Source: Schizosaccharomyces osmophilus
Taxonomy: Eukaryota
Direction of reading: 5' to 3'
NCBI RefSeq assembly: GCF_027921745.1
Contig: NC_079239.1
Location: 3,410,001-3,474,000, forward strand
Length of the DNA stretch: 64,000 nucleotides
A model generated the notes under the pieces. It did not search any database. It was not told the DNA's origin and worked only from the letters and a program-made list of their open reading frames with translations. Position numbers and translations under genes: made by a program. This document shows, piece after piece, positions 43,114-58,851 of this stretch (positions are counted from its first letter, which is position 1; each line of letters opens with the position of its first letter).

Positions 43114-43243
43114 AGCCTACAGCACCCCGGATTCCCATGTTTTCTCCAACCACAGTACGAAACTAACGAGACCCTCAGACGTTTTCACTTAACTGCAGTG
43201 ATCGGACGGGAACTGGTGTTTTCGCCTAGGTATGGCCGTGGAC
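43114..43243 (-). rRNA. 5S rDNA copy with 5-nt and 6-nt insertions (likely pseudogene)
   Basis: Full-length match to Schizosaccharomyces 5S rRNA (GTCCACGGCCATACCTAGGCG...GCTGTAGGCT), but 130 nt long because of two insertions. Confidence 0.9.
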
Positions 43244-44021
43244 GTTGATTCGCTTTGTAAAAGTAATAAGAGCAGTTTGTCTTGTTGTAATTGATGTTCT
43301 TTAGCGTTGTGTCAACTTGATGTCCTTTAAGATCCATCCCTACTTAGCTCTATCTGTGGTATTTTATCACGGTTGAATGGAGAATGCTTTCATATTATAA
43401 GAATAAGATTTGAAAAAAAAAAAAAAAAAAACTGTTTCTATCTTTTCTATTAATTCATAATGTGCTAAGCTTTCACAGCTTGTGTTTCTACGCCGCTAAG
43501 TGTAAACTCAGTGTATGAGTAAATGGGTTGTACTTACATATATTCGGATCCACTAATATATTTTCATAGTGTGTCGACTTGACTCACCATATAAACGATA
43601 ATTTAATTTATTAAGCTACATCTGTCGAATCTTTTAATCTGAAGATTTGTGCTTTCTACGCTGTGAATCAATTTTACCTCTGGCGATAATCACTTTCGTC
43701 CTTGCCATTTATGAAGTATATGCGGAAAGTACGAAGTTCATTACGGCAGAATTTTCGTCTGAATTAAATAAATAATCATTAAAAAGGGTGTTCTATTCTC
43801 GAAGAAGATGAACAATGCGTAAACAACGGTGCTGTGAAACGAATCAACAGATTCATGAAAGAGCGAATGAAAAAAGCAATTAAAGCTATCATATAAAGAT
43901 AATGCTTACTTTGGTGGATGCGAATGCAGAAACTTGATGGACTGCAATTGACATCGATGTTTCCAAAGAAGGAGCGATATATAAAGAATGAAAGCAGGTT
44001 CGGTAAAACTCAAACTCAAAC

Positions 44022-45141
44022 TCAAACTTCAGCGCTTTGCTCAGCAAGAGGCTGAAGTTCGATTTCTTCATTCTGAGATACTTGCTCTCCTCGATTTGTA
44101 TCTTTAAAATAGGTTAATTAAAGCCCTAACGATAGCAAGCATTTACGAAGTGTACATACCTAAAATACGATCCACAGCGTTTCCTATACCATTTCCTATT
44201 CCGTTTACGCAGCTTCCTATTCCGTTTTTTAAATCAATAATAACTAACCTTAGTATTTCACGCGCATTTGCATTCACTAGAACAGTTAGAATATTTCGCG
44301 GGTGTATGACATACTCGTCAATAAAAGAAACAAGTCAACGTTAACAAAACAAACAAAGTAGATAAAATTATTGTTTATCTTTTCAAATCCTGTGAACTTC
44401 TTTGCAGCATAATACACGGTGAAACCGAGGACATCGAGAAAACACATATATAATGCTGAGATACACATAGCTGACAATACGTTTTTGGTTGCTCTTCCAG
44501 CTTGCGTGAACCATTCTTTAGGCATTTGAAATATTGCTAATAGTTAGTAAGTCGCTCAAAGTGAAAGATATCGTTGTTGAATTACCAAGCAGAAACAATA
44601 CAAAGGCTGCAACAAAGCCACCAAAAAGCCCCCAAAGGGTTTTCGCATTCACAGAAGCCTTGAAACCAAAAAATAACACAAGAAGAATAGCATAGGCCAC
44701 AATATACCCAATAGTTATAGGCAACAAGATGCCTGCTAAGACTTTCTGGCAAAGCACCACATCCCAACCAGAATTATTAGCGGAATTCTGAGCGGATCCA
44801 TCAGCCATTTCTAAATCTATAAACTTGGTTGAAGCTAATGGATGTATTAGTAATAATTCGTTGTTTGTGAAAGGATAGAGGTATTCGCCCTGTTTGTTGA
44901 CACTTATCGACAAGGTTATTAGTTTCAAACTCAACAAATAAATAAACAAGCATGATTCTTCCATCAAGAACCGTTCAAAAAGCACGCAAAAAATCAACCT
45001 TTCCTTTCTATTTCAACTAATCTTACCTGTATACGGAGGAGGCGTACCATCTGAAGGAGACGACCGACTATCTGCCTTTTCATCATTGAGCGTTTTGGAA
45101 GAGTCATCAGAACCTGAAATAGGAGTGTATTTGTTTTTCAT
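44022..45141 (-). CDS. wtf: wtf meiotic drive (poison/antidote) gene, 5 exons; 260-aa antidote, ~213-aa poison from ATG 44808
   Basis: Exons 45141-45027, 44834-44586, 44536-44315, 44276-44160 and 44101-44022 splice in frame (783 nt). Exon 1 is MKNKYTPI...PPPY. There is an in-frame ATG early in exon 2 (IDLEM), TM exons, NGIG repeats in exon 4, and a QSAEV* end. Forkhead-like sites lie in intron 1. Confidence 0.9.
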
Positions 45142-45631
45142 ATTTACAATGGCAATTAAGTCCCAAAATGTTACTGACTTTTACACTCTAAACGAAATCA
45201 ACTAGAATCACCAAGAAAAGTCCGTAGAAACTGGTTCCACTTCTCAAGGATCTGTCAAAAATCTGTCAGAAAAAAAAAAGGAATTGGATCTTGCTTAAAA
45301 GCAAACTTTATTTTGCAAGATTAGTTTGCTTTAAAACCAAAGATACGATTCTGAAAAAATCTTGGTAGTGGCTTTTCGCATGTCTCAATTCATAAAAGCA
45401 GTGACATTATGTCACTGACTGGTCACAGTCCTCATTGCGATTTTTCGTAATAGTATAATCCAAAAGAGTCGTCGTTTATTACAAAATGTAAACAAAGGAA
45501 CATTTGGCAAAACAACCATGCTTTTTGCTTTGAATGATAAAAACAAGGGATTGAAAATGCTCATATTTGTATTGAAAGATTCAGTAACTTTGGCTTAATG
45601 AACTCCAGGGAAAAAGCTCGAACACTGCAGT

Positions 45632-55934: not shown

Positions 55935-56063
55935 AGCTTACAGCACCCCGGATTCCCATGTTTTCTCCAACCATAGTATTGGACTAACGAGACCCTCAGA
56001 CGTTTTCACTTAACTGCAGTGATCGGACGGGAACTGGTATTATCCCTAGGTATGGCCGTAGAC
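55935..56063 (-). rRNA. 5S rDNA copy with insertions (likely pseudogene)
   Basis: Full-length 5S match of 129 nt, with the same 6-nt insertion as the 43114 copy and a different 5-nt insertion at the same site. Confidence 0.9.
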
Positions 56064-56819
56064 GTTCCTAGTTGTCTATTAAGCTACTTTTATTATGAGG
56101 TACTCGTCCAGTATTATTTTGCTTGATGTCCTTTAAGATCCATCCCTACTCAGCTCTATCTGTGGTATTTTGTCACGGTTGAATGGAGAATTCATTCATG
56201 TTATATTATAAGAATAATGTTTGAAAACACACTGTTTTTCTCTTTTCTATTGGTTCACATCCTACTAGGCTGTCAGAGCTTTGTTTCTACGCCGCTAAGT
56301 GTAAGACTCAGCGCATGAGTTTATGGGTTTAAAAAACCCTTGTACTTACATATATTTGGATCCACTAATATATTTTCATAGTGCGTCGACTTGACTCACC
56401 ATATAAACGATAATTTAATTTATTAAGCTACATCTGTCGAATCTTTTAATCTGAAGATTTGTGCTTTCTACGCTGTGAATCAATTTTACCTCTGGCGATA
56501 ATCACTTTCGTCCTTGCCATTTATGAATTATATGCGGAAAGTACGAAGTTCATTACGACAGAATTTTCGTCGGAATAATTAAATAATCATTAAAAAGGTG
56601 TTCTATTCACGAAGAAGATGAACAATGCGTAAACAACGATGCTGTGAAACGAATCAACAGATTCATGAAAGAGCGAATAAGAAAAGCAATTAAAGCTATA
56701 ATATTAAGATAATGCTTACTTTGGTGGATGCGAATGCAGAAACTTGATGGACTGCAATTGACATGGATGCTTCCAAAGAAGATGCGAAATATAAAGAATG
56801 AAAGCAGGTTCGGTAAAAC

Positions 56820-57962
56820 TCAAACTTCAGCGCTTTGCTCAGCAAGAGGCTGAAGTTCCATTTCTTCGTTCTGAGGTACTTGCTCTCCTCGATTTGTTCC
56901 TTTAAAATAGGTTAATAAAGCCCTAACGATAGCAAGCATTTACGAAGTGTACATACCTAAAATACGATCCACAGCGTTTCCTATACCATTTCCTATACCA
57001 TTTCCTATTCCGTTTACGCCAACGCCTATGCCGTTTCTCAGATCGACGATAACTAATCTTAGTAGTAGTTCACGTGCTTTTGCATTCACTAGAACAGTTA
57101 GAATATTTCGCGGGTGTATGACATACTCGTCAAATAAAGAAACAAGACAACGTTAACAAACCAAACAGCATAGTAAAAATGATTGTTTATCTTTTCAAAT
57201 CCTGTGAACTTTTTTGCAGCATAATACACGACAAAACCAGGGACATCGAGAAAACACACATATAATACTGAGATACACATAGCTGACAATACGTTTTTGG
57301 TTAACCTTCCAGCTTGCGTGAACCATTCTTTAGGCATTTGAAATATTGCTAACAATTAATAAATCTTTCAAAATAAAAGACAGCGCTAACTTACCAAACA
57401 AAAACAATGCAAAGGATGCTACACAGCCAGCAGAAAGCCCCCAAAGGTCTAGCGCATTCAAAGAAAGCTTGAAATAAAAGAATACGACAAGAAAAATAGC
57501 ATAAAATATCATATACGCAAAAGACGTAAAAAACAACAAGTGCATTATAATCTGCCACGTATTCGTCCAACCCGATCCAGAGTTATTAACAGATTCTTGG
57601 GCGGAATTCTGAGCGGATCCATCAGCCATTTCGAGATCAATAAATTTGGTTGAAGCTAATGGATGTATTAGTAATAATTCGTTGTTTGTGAAAGGATAGA
57701 GGTATTCGCCCTGTTTGTTGACAGTTATCGACAAGGTTATTAGTTTCAAACCCGACAAATAAATAAACAAGCATGATTCTTCCATCAAGAACCGTTCAAA
57801 AAGCACGCAAAAAATCAACCTTTCCTTTCTATTTCAACTAATCTTACCTGTATACGGAGGAGGCGTACCATCTGAAGGAGACGACCGACTATCTGCCTTT
57901 TCATCATTGAGCGTTTTGGAAGAGTCATCAGAACCTGAAATAGGAGTGTATTTGTTTTTCAT
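56820..57962 (-). CDS. wtf: wtf meiotic drive (poison/antidote) gene, 5 exons; 269-aa antidote, ~222-aa poison from ATG 57629
   Basis: Exons 57962-57848, 57655-57395, 57348-57127, 57088-56957 and 56899-56820 splice in frame (810 nt). PPPY in exon 1, in-frame ATG in exon 2, NGIG repeats, and a QSAEV* end. Confidence 0.9.
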
Positions 57963-58851
57963 ATTTACAATGGCAATTAAGTCCCAAAATGATACTGACT
58001 TTTACACTCTCAACGAAATCAACTAGAATCACCAAGAAAAGTCCGTAGAAACTGGTTCCACTTCTCAAGGATCTGTCAAAAATCTGTCAGAAAAAAAAAA
58101 GGAATTGGATCTTGCTTAAAAGCAAACTTTATTTTGCAAGATTAGTTTGCTTTAAAACCAAAGATACGATTCTGAAAAAATCTTGGTAGTGGCTTTTCGC
58201 ATGTCTTAATTCATAAAAGCAGTGACATTATGTCACTGACTGGTCACAGTCCTCATTGCGATTTTTCGTAATAGTATAATCCAAAAGAGTCGTCGTTTAT
58301 TACAAAATGTAAACAAAGGAACATTTGGCAAAACAACCATGCTGTTTGCTTTGAATGATATATACACGGGATTGGAAGGTTCAGTGACCGTGGCTTAATG
58401 AACTCCAGGGAAAAGCTCGAACACTGGATTTTCGTAGCCTTACTTTTAGCATTCGTAAATCCATCGGAAGTCTGGAAAAGCAACGTTTAAACTGTCACGA
58501 ACAGCATTTGTACTGACAAGTACATCTTTATTTTTATTTAATTTATTTTAATCACACGATAGAAACAAACAAAAGCGATTTCGGACTGTTCATTCATTGT
58601 AAATTTATATAGAATAGCGTACGCTTACTAGCTATCGGTATGTGTGTCAGAGAGGGTGGATGACAGCTTCACCACTGCAAAACTTCTAGTCATTGCCATT
58701 GTGGACTCGATTCATGTAGTTTGGAGTTGTTACAAAGTAGATTTTATTAAGCTTGTTAGTCGGATCGGATGTGTGCTACTGTTTTAAAAGTTCTGACATG
58801 AGTTTGGGTGTTTACTGCCTATTTGAGTAGGTTTTGAAGGGGTTTCAGAAA

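Follow-up and report, generated by a model that had tools for sequence, protein, structure and literature searches.

The S. octosporus gene wtf25 (SOCG_04480) is a validated poison-antidote meiotic driver (PMC9562144) and shares with the two S. osmophilus genes considered here, wtf33 and wtf34, an organization in five exons, a PY motif in exon 1, a repeat in exon 4 and an early poison ATG in exon 2 at the same position as in both genes. Gene A (wtf33) and P0014, compared as S. octosporus wtf25, encode proteins that are 57% identical (E = 7.5e-81). The systems differ in that wtf25 belongs to another species and carries another exon-2 cassette (49% identical to the wtf34 core), and drive by wtf25 has been proven in its own species, whereas for wtf33 and wtf34 it is predicted.

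The S. pombe drivers wtf4 and cw9 illustrate how specificity depends on sequence identity, how repeat number affects it and how non-allelic gene conversion acts on such genes, and cassette swapping via gene conversion is already documented for the wtf family. At the protein level these drivers and the S. osmophilus genes wtf40 and wtf41 are only ~13–15% identical. S. pombe wtf4 has six exons or more and carries its repeat in exon 6, in contrast to the five exons of wtf33 and wtf34, and Tf LTRs accompany the S. pombe genes, whereas those of S. osmophilus are found with 5S rDNA and wag genes; kinship between the two groups is deduced from synteny, gene features and function (PMC9562144). The artificial S. 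pombe chimera wtfC4 combines exons 1–5 of wtf23 with exon 6 of wtf18 (PMC13160552). Its principle is the one that the original prediction for our locus had invoked, but the wtfC4 junction lies before the last exon while the wtf33/wtf34 mosaic is at exon 2. The chimera showed no drive in the one cross tried (PMC13160552).

We studied a window of 64,000 nucleotides, S. osmophilus CBS 15793T chr2:3,410,001-3,474,000, to which all positions refer. On its minus strand blastn and global alignment delimit two repeat units, each composed of an upstream region, a wtf gene, a 3′ flank and 5S rDNA: unit A (43099..45627) with wtf33 (SOMG_04063) and unit B (55923..58426) with wtf34 (SOMG_04068), at a start-to-start distance of 12,821 nt. 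Both genes are intact, the splice models giving open antidote frames of 260 aa for wtf33 (44022..45141; exons 1–5 at 45141-45027, 44834-44586, 44536-44315, 44276-44160 and 44101-44022) and 269 aa for wtf34 (56820..57962; exons 1–5 at 57962-57848, 57655-57395, 57348-57127, 57088-56957 and 56899-56820). The introns are of the GT..AG type, 38–192 nt long, with branch-site-like motifs, and start and stop of both models match exactly the wtf33 and wtf34 coordinates in Table S4 of PMC10085805. That both are wtf genes, as had been proposed, is confirmed by these published names and by the gene A protein, which is 100% identical to P0001 (XP_056038058.1), an NCBI entry named 'wtf meiotic driver [S. 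osmophilus]'.

A homology search retained 72 of 1444 candidate proteins at E ≤ 0.001 (22 S. osmophilus 'wtf meiotic driver' proteins, 48 from S. octosporus and two from S. cryophilus), and on this similarity wtf33 and wtf34 are members of the wtf clade of these three species. The Pfam WTF family yielded no match to P0001, P0003 and P0014 (whole proteins, E ≤ 1) or to four single exons, as expected because identity to S. pombe proteins is only 13–15%; the family model is based on S. pombe.

The 5S rRNA genes (Rfam RF00001, minus strand) downstream of wtf33 (43114..43243, 69.8 bits, full length) and wtf34 (55935..56063, 52.5 bits) have the same orientation as the wtf genes, and a third, weaker one (60024..60149, minus strand, 40.9 bits with the gathering score at 38) bounds the wag-wtf34 unit on its upstream side. 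The divergently oriented wtf-associated gene SOMG_04069 (plus strand, 58852..59706 in the annotation, ORF 58852-59355), a 'hypothetical protein' for which no Pfam family was matched, occupies the position of wag21 in strain CBS 15792, where wag21 is listed with wtf41 (sheet 1c of PMC9562144). Old-yellow-enzyme paralogs form a second duplicated gene pair in the same region.

In CBS 15792, wtf33 and wtf34 correspond to the syntenic alleles wtf40 and wtf41 (PMC9562144), which agree with them in locus order, spacing, neighbouring 5S and wag genes and the motif GTCAACAAACA. Over the initial portion of the alignment, exons 1 and 2 of wtf40 are those of wtf33, while its exon 3 is B-like, with seven differences from wtf33 and one from wtf34 over 62 residues; wtf41 equals wtf34 in the compared part but for at least one residue (LLLFTS vs LLFFTS). 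Furthermore, wtf40 exceeds wtf33 in length by 15 nt (1135 vs 1120 nt). The B-like exon 3 and the greater length of wtf40 account for the lower pair identity in CBS 15793T (76.2%) compared to CBS 15792 (84.4%). Such a combination of wtf33-type exons 1–2 with a B-like exon 3 indicates that segment exchange is ongoing.

The second strain also bears on whether the mosaic could be an assembly chimera, created from collapsed or mis-joined repeats. The family is repetitive, short-read contigs are fragmented and, among the contigs listed from four sequencing runs, none spans the stretch. However, the assembly was built from PacBio HiFi reads (PMC10085805), and in an independent nanopore assembly of the other strain both syntenic genes join the same exon 1 to the same exon 2 as here, with gene spacing near-equal in the two strains (12,829 vs 12,821 nt). 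We consider the probability of such an artefact to be negligible.

In blastn, units A and B are 88.6% identical over 2501 columns, with a further 48-nt piece aligned, but this average conceals large local differences. As the original prediction had it, exon 1 is identical (115/115) and the upstream region and intron 1 are nearly so (405/412, 98.3%, and 189/192, 98.4%), followed by a sharp divergence in exon 2 with 183 matches, 66 mismatches and 12 gap columns (73.5% identity); the peptides cited for this exon were correct. Intron 2, which had been called unrelated, is very divergent (33 matches, 13 mismatches, 3 gaps, ~72% identity) but still weakly alignable, the shuffle mean being 28.2 matches and 31 of 2000 shuffles reaching 33. 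Exons 3–5 fall into a range of 86–94% identity (exon 3, 201/222 with 11 of 74 residues different; exon 4, 101 matches, 16 mismatches and 15 gaps; exon 5, 75/80), while introns 3 and 4 are identical at 38/38 and 57/57 positions, the latter with one gap. The 3′ flank does not deserve the description "nearly identical": with 664 matches, 74 mismatches and 58 gaps it is 90% identical, or 83% with gaps counted, although it contains a 143-nt identical run. The downstream 5S genes agree at 120/129 positions. The length difference in exon 4 (44160..44276 in wtf33, minus strand, with the NGIG-type repeat) corresponds, as originally noted, to a 12-nt NGIG unit and a Leu codon, together 15 nt; Tandem Repeats Finder detects 2.7 copies of the unit in wtf34 (56977..57008, minus strand), wtf33 having one unit fewer, and a variable exon-4 repeat has been described (PMC9562144). 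The 16 substitutions in this exon had not been mentioned before.

Divergence is thus non-uniform in the per-exon alignment, from 100% down to ~72% identity per segment, and the heterogeneity is far past chance. There are 10 differences in 719 positions of the 5′ block compared to 66/249 in exon 2 (Fisher p = 9e-32), and 3/192 in intron 1 compared to 13/46 in intron 2 (p = 4e-8). The longest identical run measures 237 nt, a length reached in none of 10,000 shuffles of the differing alignment columns (maximum 116), and the identical runs of 237, 195 and 136 nt cross non-coding sequence. Synonymous differences are absent from exon 1 (0 at ~27 sites) but amount to 11/44 in the exon-2 core (p = 0.005).

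A recent homogenization of the 5′ part, as originally proposed, is supported by this lack of synonymous change in exon 1 together with a Gly-10 codon private to the two genes, found in only wtf33 and wtf34 among 25 aligned rows of S. osmophilus and S. cryophilus. Most S. osmophilus contigs have another letter at position 45113. One could imagine instead that the two genes were inserted independently at pre-existing 5S rDNA sites, without any exchange between them, and that their 5′ identity reflects nothing but family-wide purifying selection on exon 1, intron 1 and the promoter. A model in which wtf genes duplicate into 5S rDNA sites already in place has been proposed (PMC9562144), and the 5′ module at 44803-45539 is 92–100% identical in contigs of two other organisms, in which 43273-44728 has no match at ≥ 90%. 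In exon 1, the remaining 23 of the aligned rows are 63–97% identical to the pair. Yet wtf33 and wtf34 are mutually closest in this exon, at 100%, and purifying selection alone does not fit well with the private Gly-10 codon, the deviating letter at 45113 in most S. osmophilus contigs, the absence of synonymous differences, the long identical runs over non-coding sequence or the homology of the 3′ flank and 5S genes (90–93%). Independent insertion without exchange therefore appears unlikely. Since the 5′ module is conserved across the family and in other organisms, selection on the regulatory part may nevertheless also contribute to the 5′ similarity.

Where do the divergent exon-2 segments come from? 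The core of wtf33 exon 2 (44586..44834, minus strand; class I cassette; core aa 58–121, encoding hydrophobic segments 1–2) is 100% identical at the protein level to P0007, P0011 and P0073, three paralogs from a chromosome other than that of wtf33, of which P0007 and P0011 lie on a 5.57-Mb contig, and the paralogs with this core are only 77–80% identical to wtf33 in exon 3. The core of wtf34 exon 2 (57395..57655, minus strand; class IIa cassette) is 98% identical to P0003, with which wtf34 forms a starred clade of SH-aLRT 100 in the exon-2b tree. The two cores are only 45% identical to each other. The original prediction had left open whether the specificity region was swapped or diversified; swapping is favoured because the cores recur at 98–100% in paralogs and because intron 2 diverges along with the core. 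In-lineage diversification may account for some of the cassette divergence.

These observations can be set against a history in which a recent tandem or segmental duplication left most of the gene similar, while positive selection then rapidly diversified exon 2 in place. In line with such a history the genes are 12.8 kb apart and have the private Gly-10 in common, the old-yellow-enzyme paralogs are duplicated in the same region and the dN/dS ratio of the exon-2 core is 1.48. This ratio, however, is not significantly above 1 (Fisher p = 0.27), and synonymous divergence is 0.31 in the core as opposed to 0 in exon 1. The non-coding intron 2 (13/46 differences) is as divergent as the core, and each core recurs at 98–100% protein identity in paralogs on another contig, all of which makes in-place diversification very improbable.

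The patchwork is in our opinion very likely the product of ectopic (non-allelic) gene conversion among dispersed, 5S-rDNA-flanked wtf copies. Gene conversion would have joined exon-2 cassettes that already existed to a 5′ part that the two genes came to share recently. We infer the donors, the tract ends and the direction of exchange from paralog proteins only.

The expected functioning of the two genes can be predicted from tested relatives. A long transcript starting upstream of exon 1 would encode the antidote, and a short transcript starting in intron 1, the predicted poison promoter (192 nt, 44835..45026 in wtf33, minus strand), would yield the poison from the exon-2 ATG. The start would be at a FLEX-like motif of the Mei4 type, GTCAACAAACA, which occurs in intron 1 of both wtf33 (44901-44891) and wtf34 (57722-57712) and is also the FIMO match for wtf40 and wtf41 of CBS 15792 (sheet 1c, PMC9562144). 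The poison ATG is in frame, 27 nt into exon 2, at 44808-44806 in wtf33 and 57629-57627 in wtf34. In this scheme the exon-1 tail (45027..45141 in wtf33, minus strand) would be the sole difference between antidote and poison. It contains a single PPPY (PY) motif at aa 34–37 in both proteins; the motif is conserved in these species and its role is described in PMC10721834. PPPY would recruit Rsp5/NEDD4-type ubiquitin ligases and direct the antidote and the co-assembled poison to the endosome and vacuole. By the crude criterion of Kyte–Doolittle 19-residue windows > 1.6, the wtf33 protein has four hydrophobic segments, a pair each in exons 2 and 3, while in wtf34 the peaks overlap into three segments, a fourth remaining below threshold. 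Transcription in this manner and spore killing by wtf33 and wtf34 are presumed by analogy.

Co-assembly of antidote and poison would require near-identical shared sequence. Given that 55% of the cassette residues, 11/74 exon-3 residues and the exon-4 repeat number differ, the two genes would probably constitute mutually non-protecting drivers. The poison isoforms are identical at 158 of 222 positions (71%), a value inside the identity range of published non-neutralizing pairs, non-cognate poison and antidote of 13–76% identity having given no rescue. We infer from these comparisons that wtf33 and wtf34 would probably not neutralize each other's poison. As to cognate pairs, in S. cerevisiae the wtf41 poison of CBS 15792 proved toxic and its own antidote gave partial rescue (PMC9562144), which a later paper describes as inefficient.

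The mosaic pattern as such is already in print at the family level. Besides the variable exon-4 repeat and the S. pombe chimera, GARD segments have been published for S. osmophilus wtf genes (1-158 / 159-297 / 298-1044, p = 0.0004), as has ectopic recombination between the two sequenced S. osmophilus strains. In our data set a single exon-3 class accompanies four of the six exon-2b classes, three of which are also combined with a second exon-3 class. AU tests on groups named after the trees had been inspected reject exon-2b classes III (p = 0.0039) and IV (p = 0.0009) as clades on exon-3 data, and exon-3 class b on exon-2b data (p = 3.5e-52). The groups {A, P0007, P0011} (p = 0.16) and {B, P0003} (p = 0.47) were not rejected on exon-3 data, so that the incongruence among the close exon-3 class-a genes rests on identity values and not on a significant tree test.

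The cassettes fall into at least six classes with 19–45% identity between them, except for the related IIa/IIb pair (70%). The class III cassette is 75–100% identical between S. osmophilus and S. cryophilus, and near-identity across species extends to whole genes (208/214 residues). Tentatively, and with more doubt than confidence, one may regard the exon-2 segment not simply as fast-evolving but as a limited set of ancient, discrete transmembrane cassettes that are combined anew with exon-3 and exon-4/5 modules in the manner of a combinatorial specificity code. If this were true, the cassettes would outlive species splits and be kept through negative frequency-dependent selection, the cross-species identity of 208/214 residues would suggest that drivers had introgressed or been transferred from one species to another, and new driver specificities would arise mainly by reassortment, not by mutation.

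Adding 3,410,000 to the start and stop positions of gene A (44022-45141, minus strand) and gene B (56820-57962, minus strand) gives exactly the coordinates listed in Table S4 of PMC10085805 for wtf33 (SOMG_04063, chr2:3454022-3455141, minus strand) and wtf34 (SOMG_04068, chr2:3466820-3467962, minus strand). In the type strain, CBS 15793T, the window therefore covers chr2:3,410,001-3,474,000, with the end of the contig about 30 kb away. Their syntenic counterparts in strain CBS 15792 are wtf40 and wtf41 (PMC10085805). PMC9562144 describes 42 wtf genes in S. osmophilus together with their 5S/wag context; CBS 15792 has 42 such loci and CBS 15793T has 41. 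Each lies on the minus strand of a repeat unit detected by blastn (43099-45627 for A, 55923-58426 for B; 88.6% identity over 2501 columns), at the end of which is a 5S rRNA gene in the same orientation as the wtf gene (43114-43243, 69.8 bits, and 55935-56063, 52.5 bits, respectively). Upstream of B we find the divergently oriented SOMG_04069 (58852-59706), which has no Pfam family, and a weak third 5S (60024-60149, 40.9 bits); with these scores, some of the three 5S copies may be decaying. The wag-wtf-5S arrangement seen at B is described in PMC9562144. A tblastn search with both proteins found no other wtf copies in the window. Between the two units lie a tRNA-Pro(AGG) (52032-52103, plus strand) and a tRNA-Gly(TCC) gene (52340-52410, plus strand). 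In addition, two old-yellow-enzyme paralogs of 403 aa each (38736-39947 and 47842-49053, both minus strand; Pfam Oxidored_FMN, E about 1e-92 to 1e-94; 78.8% identity over 1215 nt) are found a few kb on the low-coordinate side of one wtf unit each, and this pair may have been left by an earlier segmental duplication in which a wtf unit was copied as well.

Both genes are modelled with five exons; their GT..AG introns measure 192, 49/46, 38 and 58/57 nt, and the frames stay open over 260 aa in A and 269 aa in B. The A protein is identical letter for letter to P0001, an entry of the protein search, and translated exon 3 of A, which matched 14 proteins among 16 candidates, had as its best match a 260-aa 'wtf meiotic driver [Schizosaccharomyces osmophilus]' with 100% identity on a 3,504,162-nt contig. 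In both genes, exon 1 encodes PPPY (residues 34-37), exon 2 contains an in-frame ATG 27 nt from its start (minus strand, 44808-44806 in A and 57629-57627 in B), exon 4 holds a 12-nt repeat and intron 1 has the motif GTCAACAAACA (minus strand, 44901-44891 and 57722-57712), which is the FIMO 'FLEX' match listed for the syntenic wtf40/wtf41 (PMC9562144). PY motifs within the tail of the antidote are bound by Rsp5/NEDD4 ligases, and a single such motif is conserved among wtf genes from the clade holding S. osmophilus, according to PMC10721834. By simple hydropathy scanning, A has four hydrophobic segments, split evenly between exons 2 and 3; for B the scan gave overlapping peaks for three segments and missed the fourth. 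The sequence features tested for membership of the non-pombe wtf clade are present in A and B, with the intron-1 motif a candidate FLEX element for a short transcript. No Pfam WTF match was obtained for four single exons or for the wtf proteins P0001, P0003 and P0014, the search giving just sub-threshold ABC-type membrane matches; this is expected for a profile based on S. pombe, since identity to the S. pombe proteins is 13-15%.

As the original prediction held, the pair is a mosaic of strongly uneven identity. The upstream region (405/412) and intron 1 (189/192) are nearly identical and exon 1 is completely so (115/115). This high identity stops as exon 2 begins, where the KFIDLE codons already contain four or five synonymous changes; a 29-nt identical stretch follows at MADGSAQNSA, after which identity drops just as sharply as had been proposed (183 matches, 66 mismatches and 12 gap columns over exon 2). 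The first break between the GARD segments published for S. osmophilus wtf genes (1-158, 159-297 and 298-1044; PMC9562144) coincides with this onset of divergence. Intron 2 (33 matches, 13 mismatches, 3 gaps) had been called unrelated; it is indeed very divergent but retains a marginal similarity, since the shuffle mean is 28.2 matches and 31 of 2000 shuffles reach 33. Further downstream, exon 3 is identical at 201 of 222 positions, intron 3 at 38/38, intron 4 at 57/57 plus one gap, and exon 5 at 75/80. Exon 4 (101 matches, 16 mismatches, 15 gaps) differs in length by one NGIG unit (12 nt) and one Leu codon, as predicted, and a variable exon-4 repeat has been reported (PMC9562144, in part). To describe the 3′ flank as nearly identical was an overstatement, its identity being 90% (664 matches, 74 mismatches, 58 gaps); the 5S genes align with 120 matches, 9 mismatches and 1 gap.

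This unevenness is not due to chance. The longest identical run measures 237 nt (45170-44934) and others 195, 143 and 136 nt, whereas shuffling the differing columns (304 among 2485) 10,000 times gave runs of 116 nt at most. In Fisher tests the 5′ block (10/719 differences) is set apart from exon 2 (66/249) with p = 9e-32, and intron 1 (3/192) from intron 2 (13/46) with p = 4e-8. An assembly artefact as the source of the mosaic is hardly conceivable. On a finer scale, introns 3 and 4 (44277-44314 and 44102-44159 in A, and their B counterparts) are identical at all 95 aligned bases while the surrounding exons show 42 differences in 419 bases (Fisher p = 0.0002), and exon 4 alone has a dS of 0.55; these introns could owe their identity to very short conversion tracts or to a family-wide constraint on tiny introns. 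Two small differences were seen beyond the stop codon: a GAGTTT-type microsatellite right after it is 12 nt longer in A (44004-44021) than in B (56814-56819), and a run of 19 A (plus strand, 43412-43430) in the 3′ flank of A is missing from B.

A question raised by this pattern is whether the specificity region was swapped or diversified. Paralogs were compared as proteins only, with the alignment cut at the exon borders of A. Of the 1444 candidates in a search with P0001, 72 proteins reached E <= 0.001 (22 from S. osmophilus, 48 from S. octosporus and 2 from S. cryophilus), all representatives of 90% clusters; the B protein is not among these 72 matches. The exon-2 core, or cassette (aa 58-121 of A, hydrophobic segments 1-2), is only 45% identical between A and B. 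That of A shows 100% protein identity to P0007 and P0011, two paralogs on a 5.57-Mb contig, and by reading is also the core of P0073, while that of B is 98% identical to P0003, its starred partner (SH-aLRT 100) in the tree for exon 2b. Exon 3 of A is 77-80% identical to the same three paralogs and finds its nearest relatives in P0002 (89%) and B (85%); exon 3 of B is 72% identical to that of P0003. Given these 98-100% matches, neither core is private or newly evolved, and each represents a cassette present elsewhere in the genome behind different neighbours. The recurrence favours a swap, and diversification in place is very improbable.

Silent sites agree with this cassette swap. Exon 1, 100% identical between A and B compared with 63-97% to the remaining 23 rows from S. 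osmophilus and S. cryophilus, has a dS of 0 (0 of ~27 sites), as opposed to 0.31 for the exon-2 core (p = 0.005 for synonymous differences) and a 28% difference at aligned sites of intron 2. The core and intron 2 thus predate the 5′ part by far. At 1.48, the dN/dS ratio of the core does not exceed 1 significantly (p = 0.27), and over a longer time relaxed or diversifying selection may possibly have acted on the cassettes.

Reassortment extends to the whole family. We surveyed 25 rows, 23 from S. osmophilus including A and B and 2 from S. cryophilus, leaving out the 48 S. octosporus proteins and P0073 to P0075. The exon-2 cores fall into six discrete classes with 19-45% identity between classes, except IIa versus IIb (70%); A belongs to class I and B to class IIa. 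Class III is joined to exon-3 class a in 5 rows, to b in 4 and to another class in 1, class IV occurs with a (2) and b (2), and class IIb with a (2), b (1) and another (1), i.e. exon-2 and exon-3 classes combine freely. In AU tests, for which the groups were named post hoc after the trees were seen, the clade status of classes III and IV is rejected by exon-3 data (p = 0.0039 and 0.0009) and that of exon-3 class b by exon-2 data (p = 3.5e-52). The groups sharing the A and B cassettes were not rejected by exon-3 data (p = 0.16 and 0.47), which are too shallow for such small groups. P0007 and P0073 have exons 1-3 in common, but their exons 4-5 are of wholly distinct types. The CBS 15792 gene wtf19 (supplement of PMC9562144) begins its core with the first hydrophobic segment, or half, of the A cassette and continues with a second half that is B-like, the junction falling close to the conserved LWGL motif. 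Breaks thus occur inside the cassette too, which fits the second GARD breakpoint at 297 in the same source.

Ectopic gene conversion or recombination among dispersed 5S-flanked wtf units very probably made the A/B mosaic. The pair shows no fewer than three layers: a very recent 5′ part common to both (about 1.4% different), stretches differing by 0-14% over exons 3-5 and the flank, and an old cassette with intron 2 (about 28%). Independent insertions of units whose 5′ part is merely conserved would be an improbable alternative. It gains some credit from the conservation of the 5′ module at 92-100% in two other organisms, but is at odds with the long identical runs and with a Gly-10 private to A and B among the 25 rows, the others having Asp or another residue; at base 45113, the Gly-10 position, most contigs of the S. 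osmophilus run read the other letter. The conservation was seen in contigs of two public sequencing runs, X6 and X8, which match promoter, exon 1 and intron 1 (44803-45539), one 86-nt piece without any difference, as well as the 5S (43114-43243). No X6 or X8 contig at >= 90% covers exon 2 to the 3′ flank (43273-44728), a gap that is just an absence of contigs at this likeness. The non-coding 5′ module seems to be conserved between species far more than the coding body. At 43153 and 43240, in the 5S beside A, nearly all 5S contigs of all four runs differ from the window letter, so that the wtf-linked 5S carries private changes.

Conversion or recombination between units also appears to have continued after the two strains separated. 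In the alignment of PMC9562144, CBS 15792 wtf40 has exons 1 and 2 of A and a B-like exon 3, with 7 differences from A and 1 from B among the 62 exon-3 residues compared. The gene lengths (1135 nt for wtf40, 1120 nt for wtf33) and the pair identities (84.4% for wtf40/wtf41 versus 76.2% for wtf33/wtf34) fit this B-like exon 3. As CBS 15793T and CBS 15792 share 99.73% ANI (PMC10085805), one exchange would be dated as very recent; the excerpts of that paper attribute four syntenic wtf pairs with < 98% identity to ectopic recombination. Contigs of the four public runs over the gene are pieces of 86-344 nt in which paralogs are mixed and not assignable to a locus, so that they neither confirm nor contradict the inter-strain difference in exon 3; one 161-nt contig of run X5 matches 44456-44616 with no difference.

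Outside the window, P0054 of S. cryophilus and P0045 of S. osmophilus are identical at 208 of 214 aligned residues (97.2%), compared with a genome-wide mean of 85.2% for orthologs of the two species and up to 89.9% (cryo_wtf1 vs osmo_wtf10) as listed in PMC9562144. In a family described as fast-evolving, this likeness suggests interspecies introgression or transfer, or very strong constraint.

Among killer meiotic drivers that consist of a single gene, the wtf genes are best understood, and their family is about 100 million years old. A duplicate does no harm to the copy it came from until its own poison escapes the parent antidote, and the origin of new specificities would therefore explain this persistence. 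The poison isoforms of A and B are 71% identical (158/222), and five non-cognate pairs with 13-76% identity outside exon 1 showed no rescue in PMC9562144; by this comparison, a lack of cross-protection between A and B is the expected outcome. According to the same source, poison and antidote of wtf41 are active in S. cerevisiae; the wtf41 antidote neutralizes its own poison poorly (PMC11892871, in part). When two wtf genes of S. pombe were recombined artificially, the resulting poison was detoxified by its own antidote only (PMC13160552).

The original observation is thus correct, and concerns a documented phenomenon in annotated genes. Our literature search found no paper describing the wtf33/wtf34 pair as a mosaic; earlier publications contain the phenomenon, the statistics for the family and the names of the genes, and the value of the pair is illustrative. 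It offers a clean natural example of a common antidote tail and promoter combined with two different membrane cassettes, and a natural test case for whether the cassette of hydrophobic segments 1-2 alone sets poison-antidote specificity.
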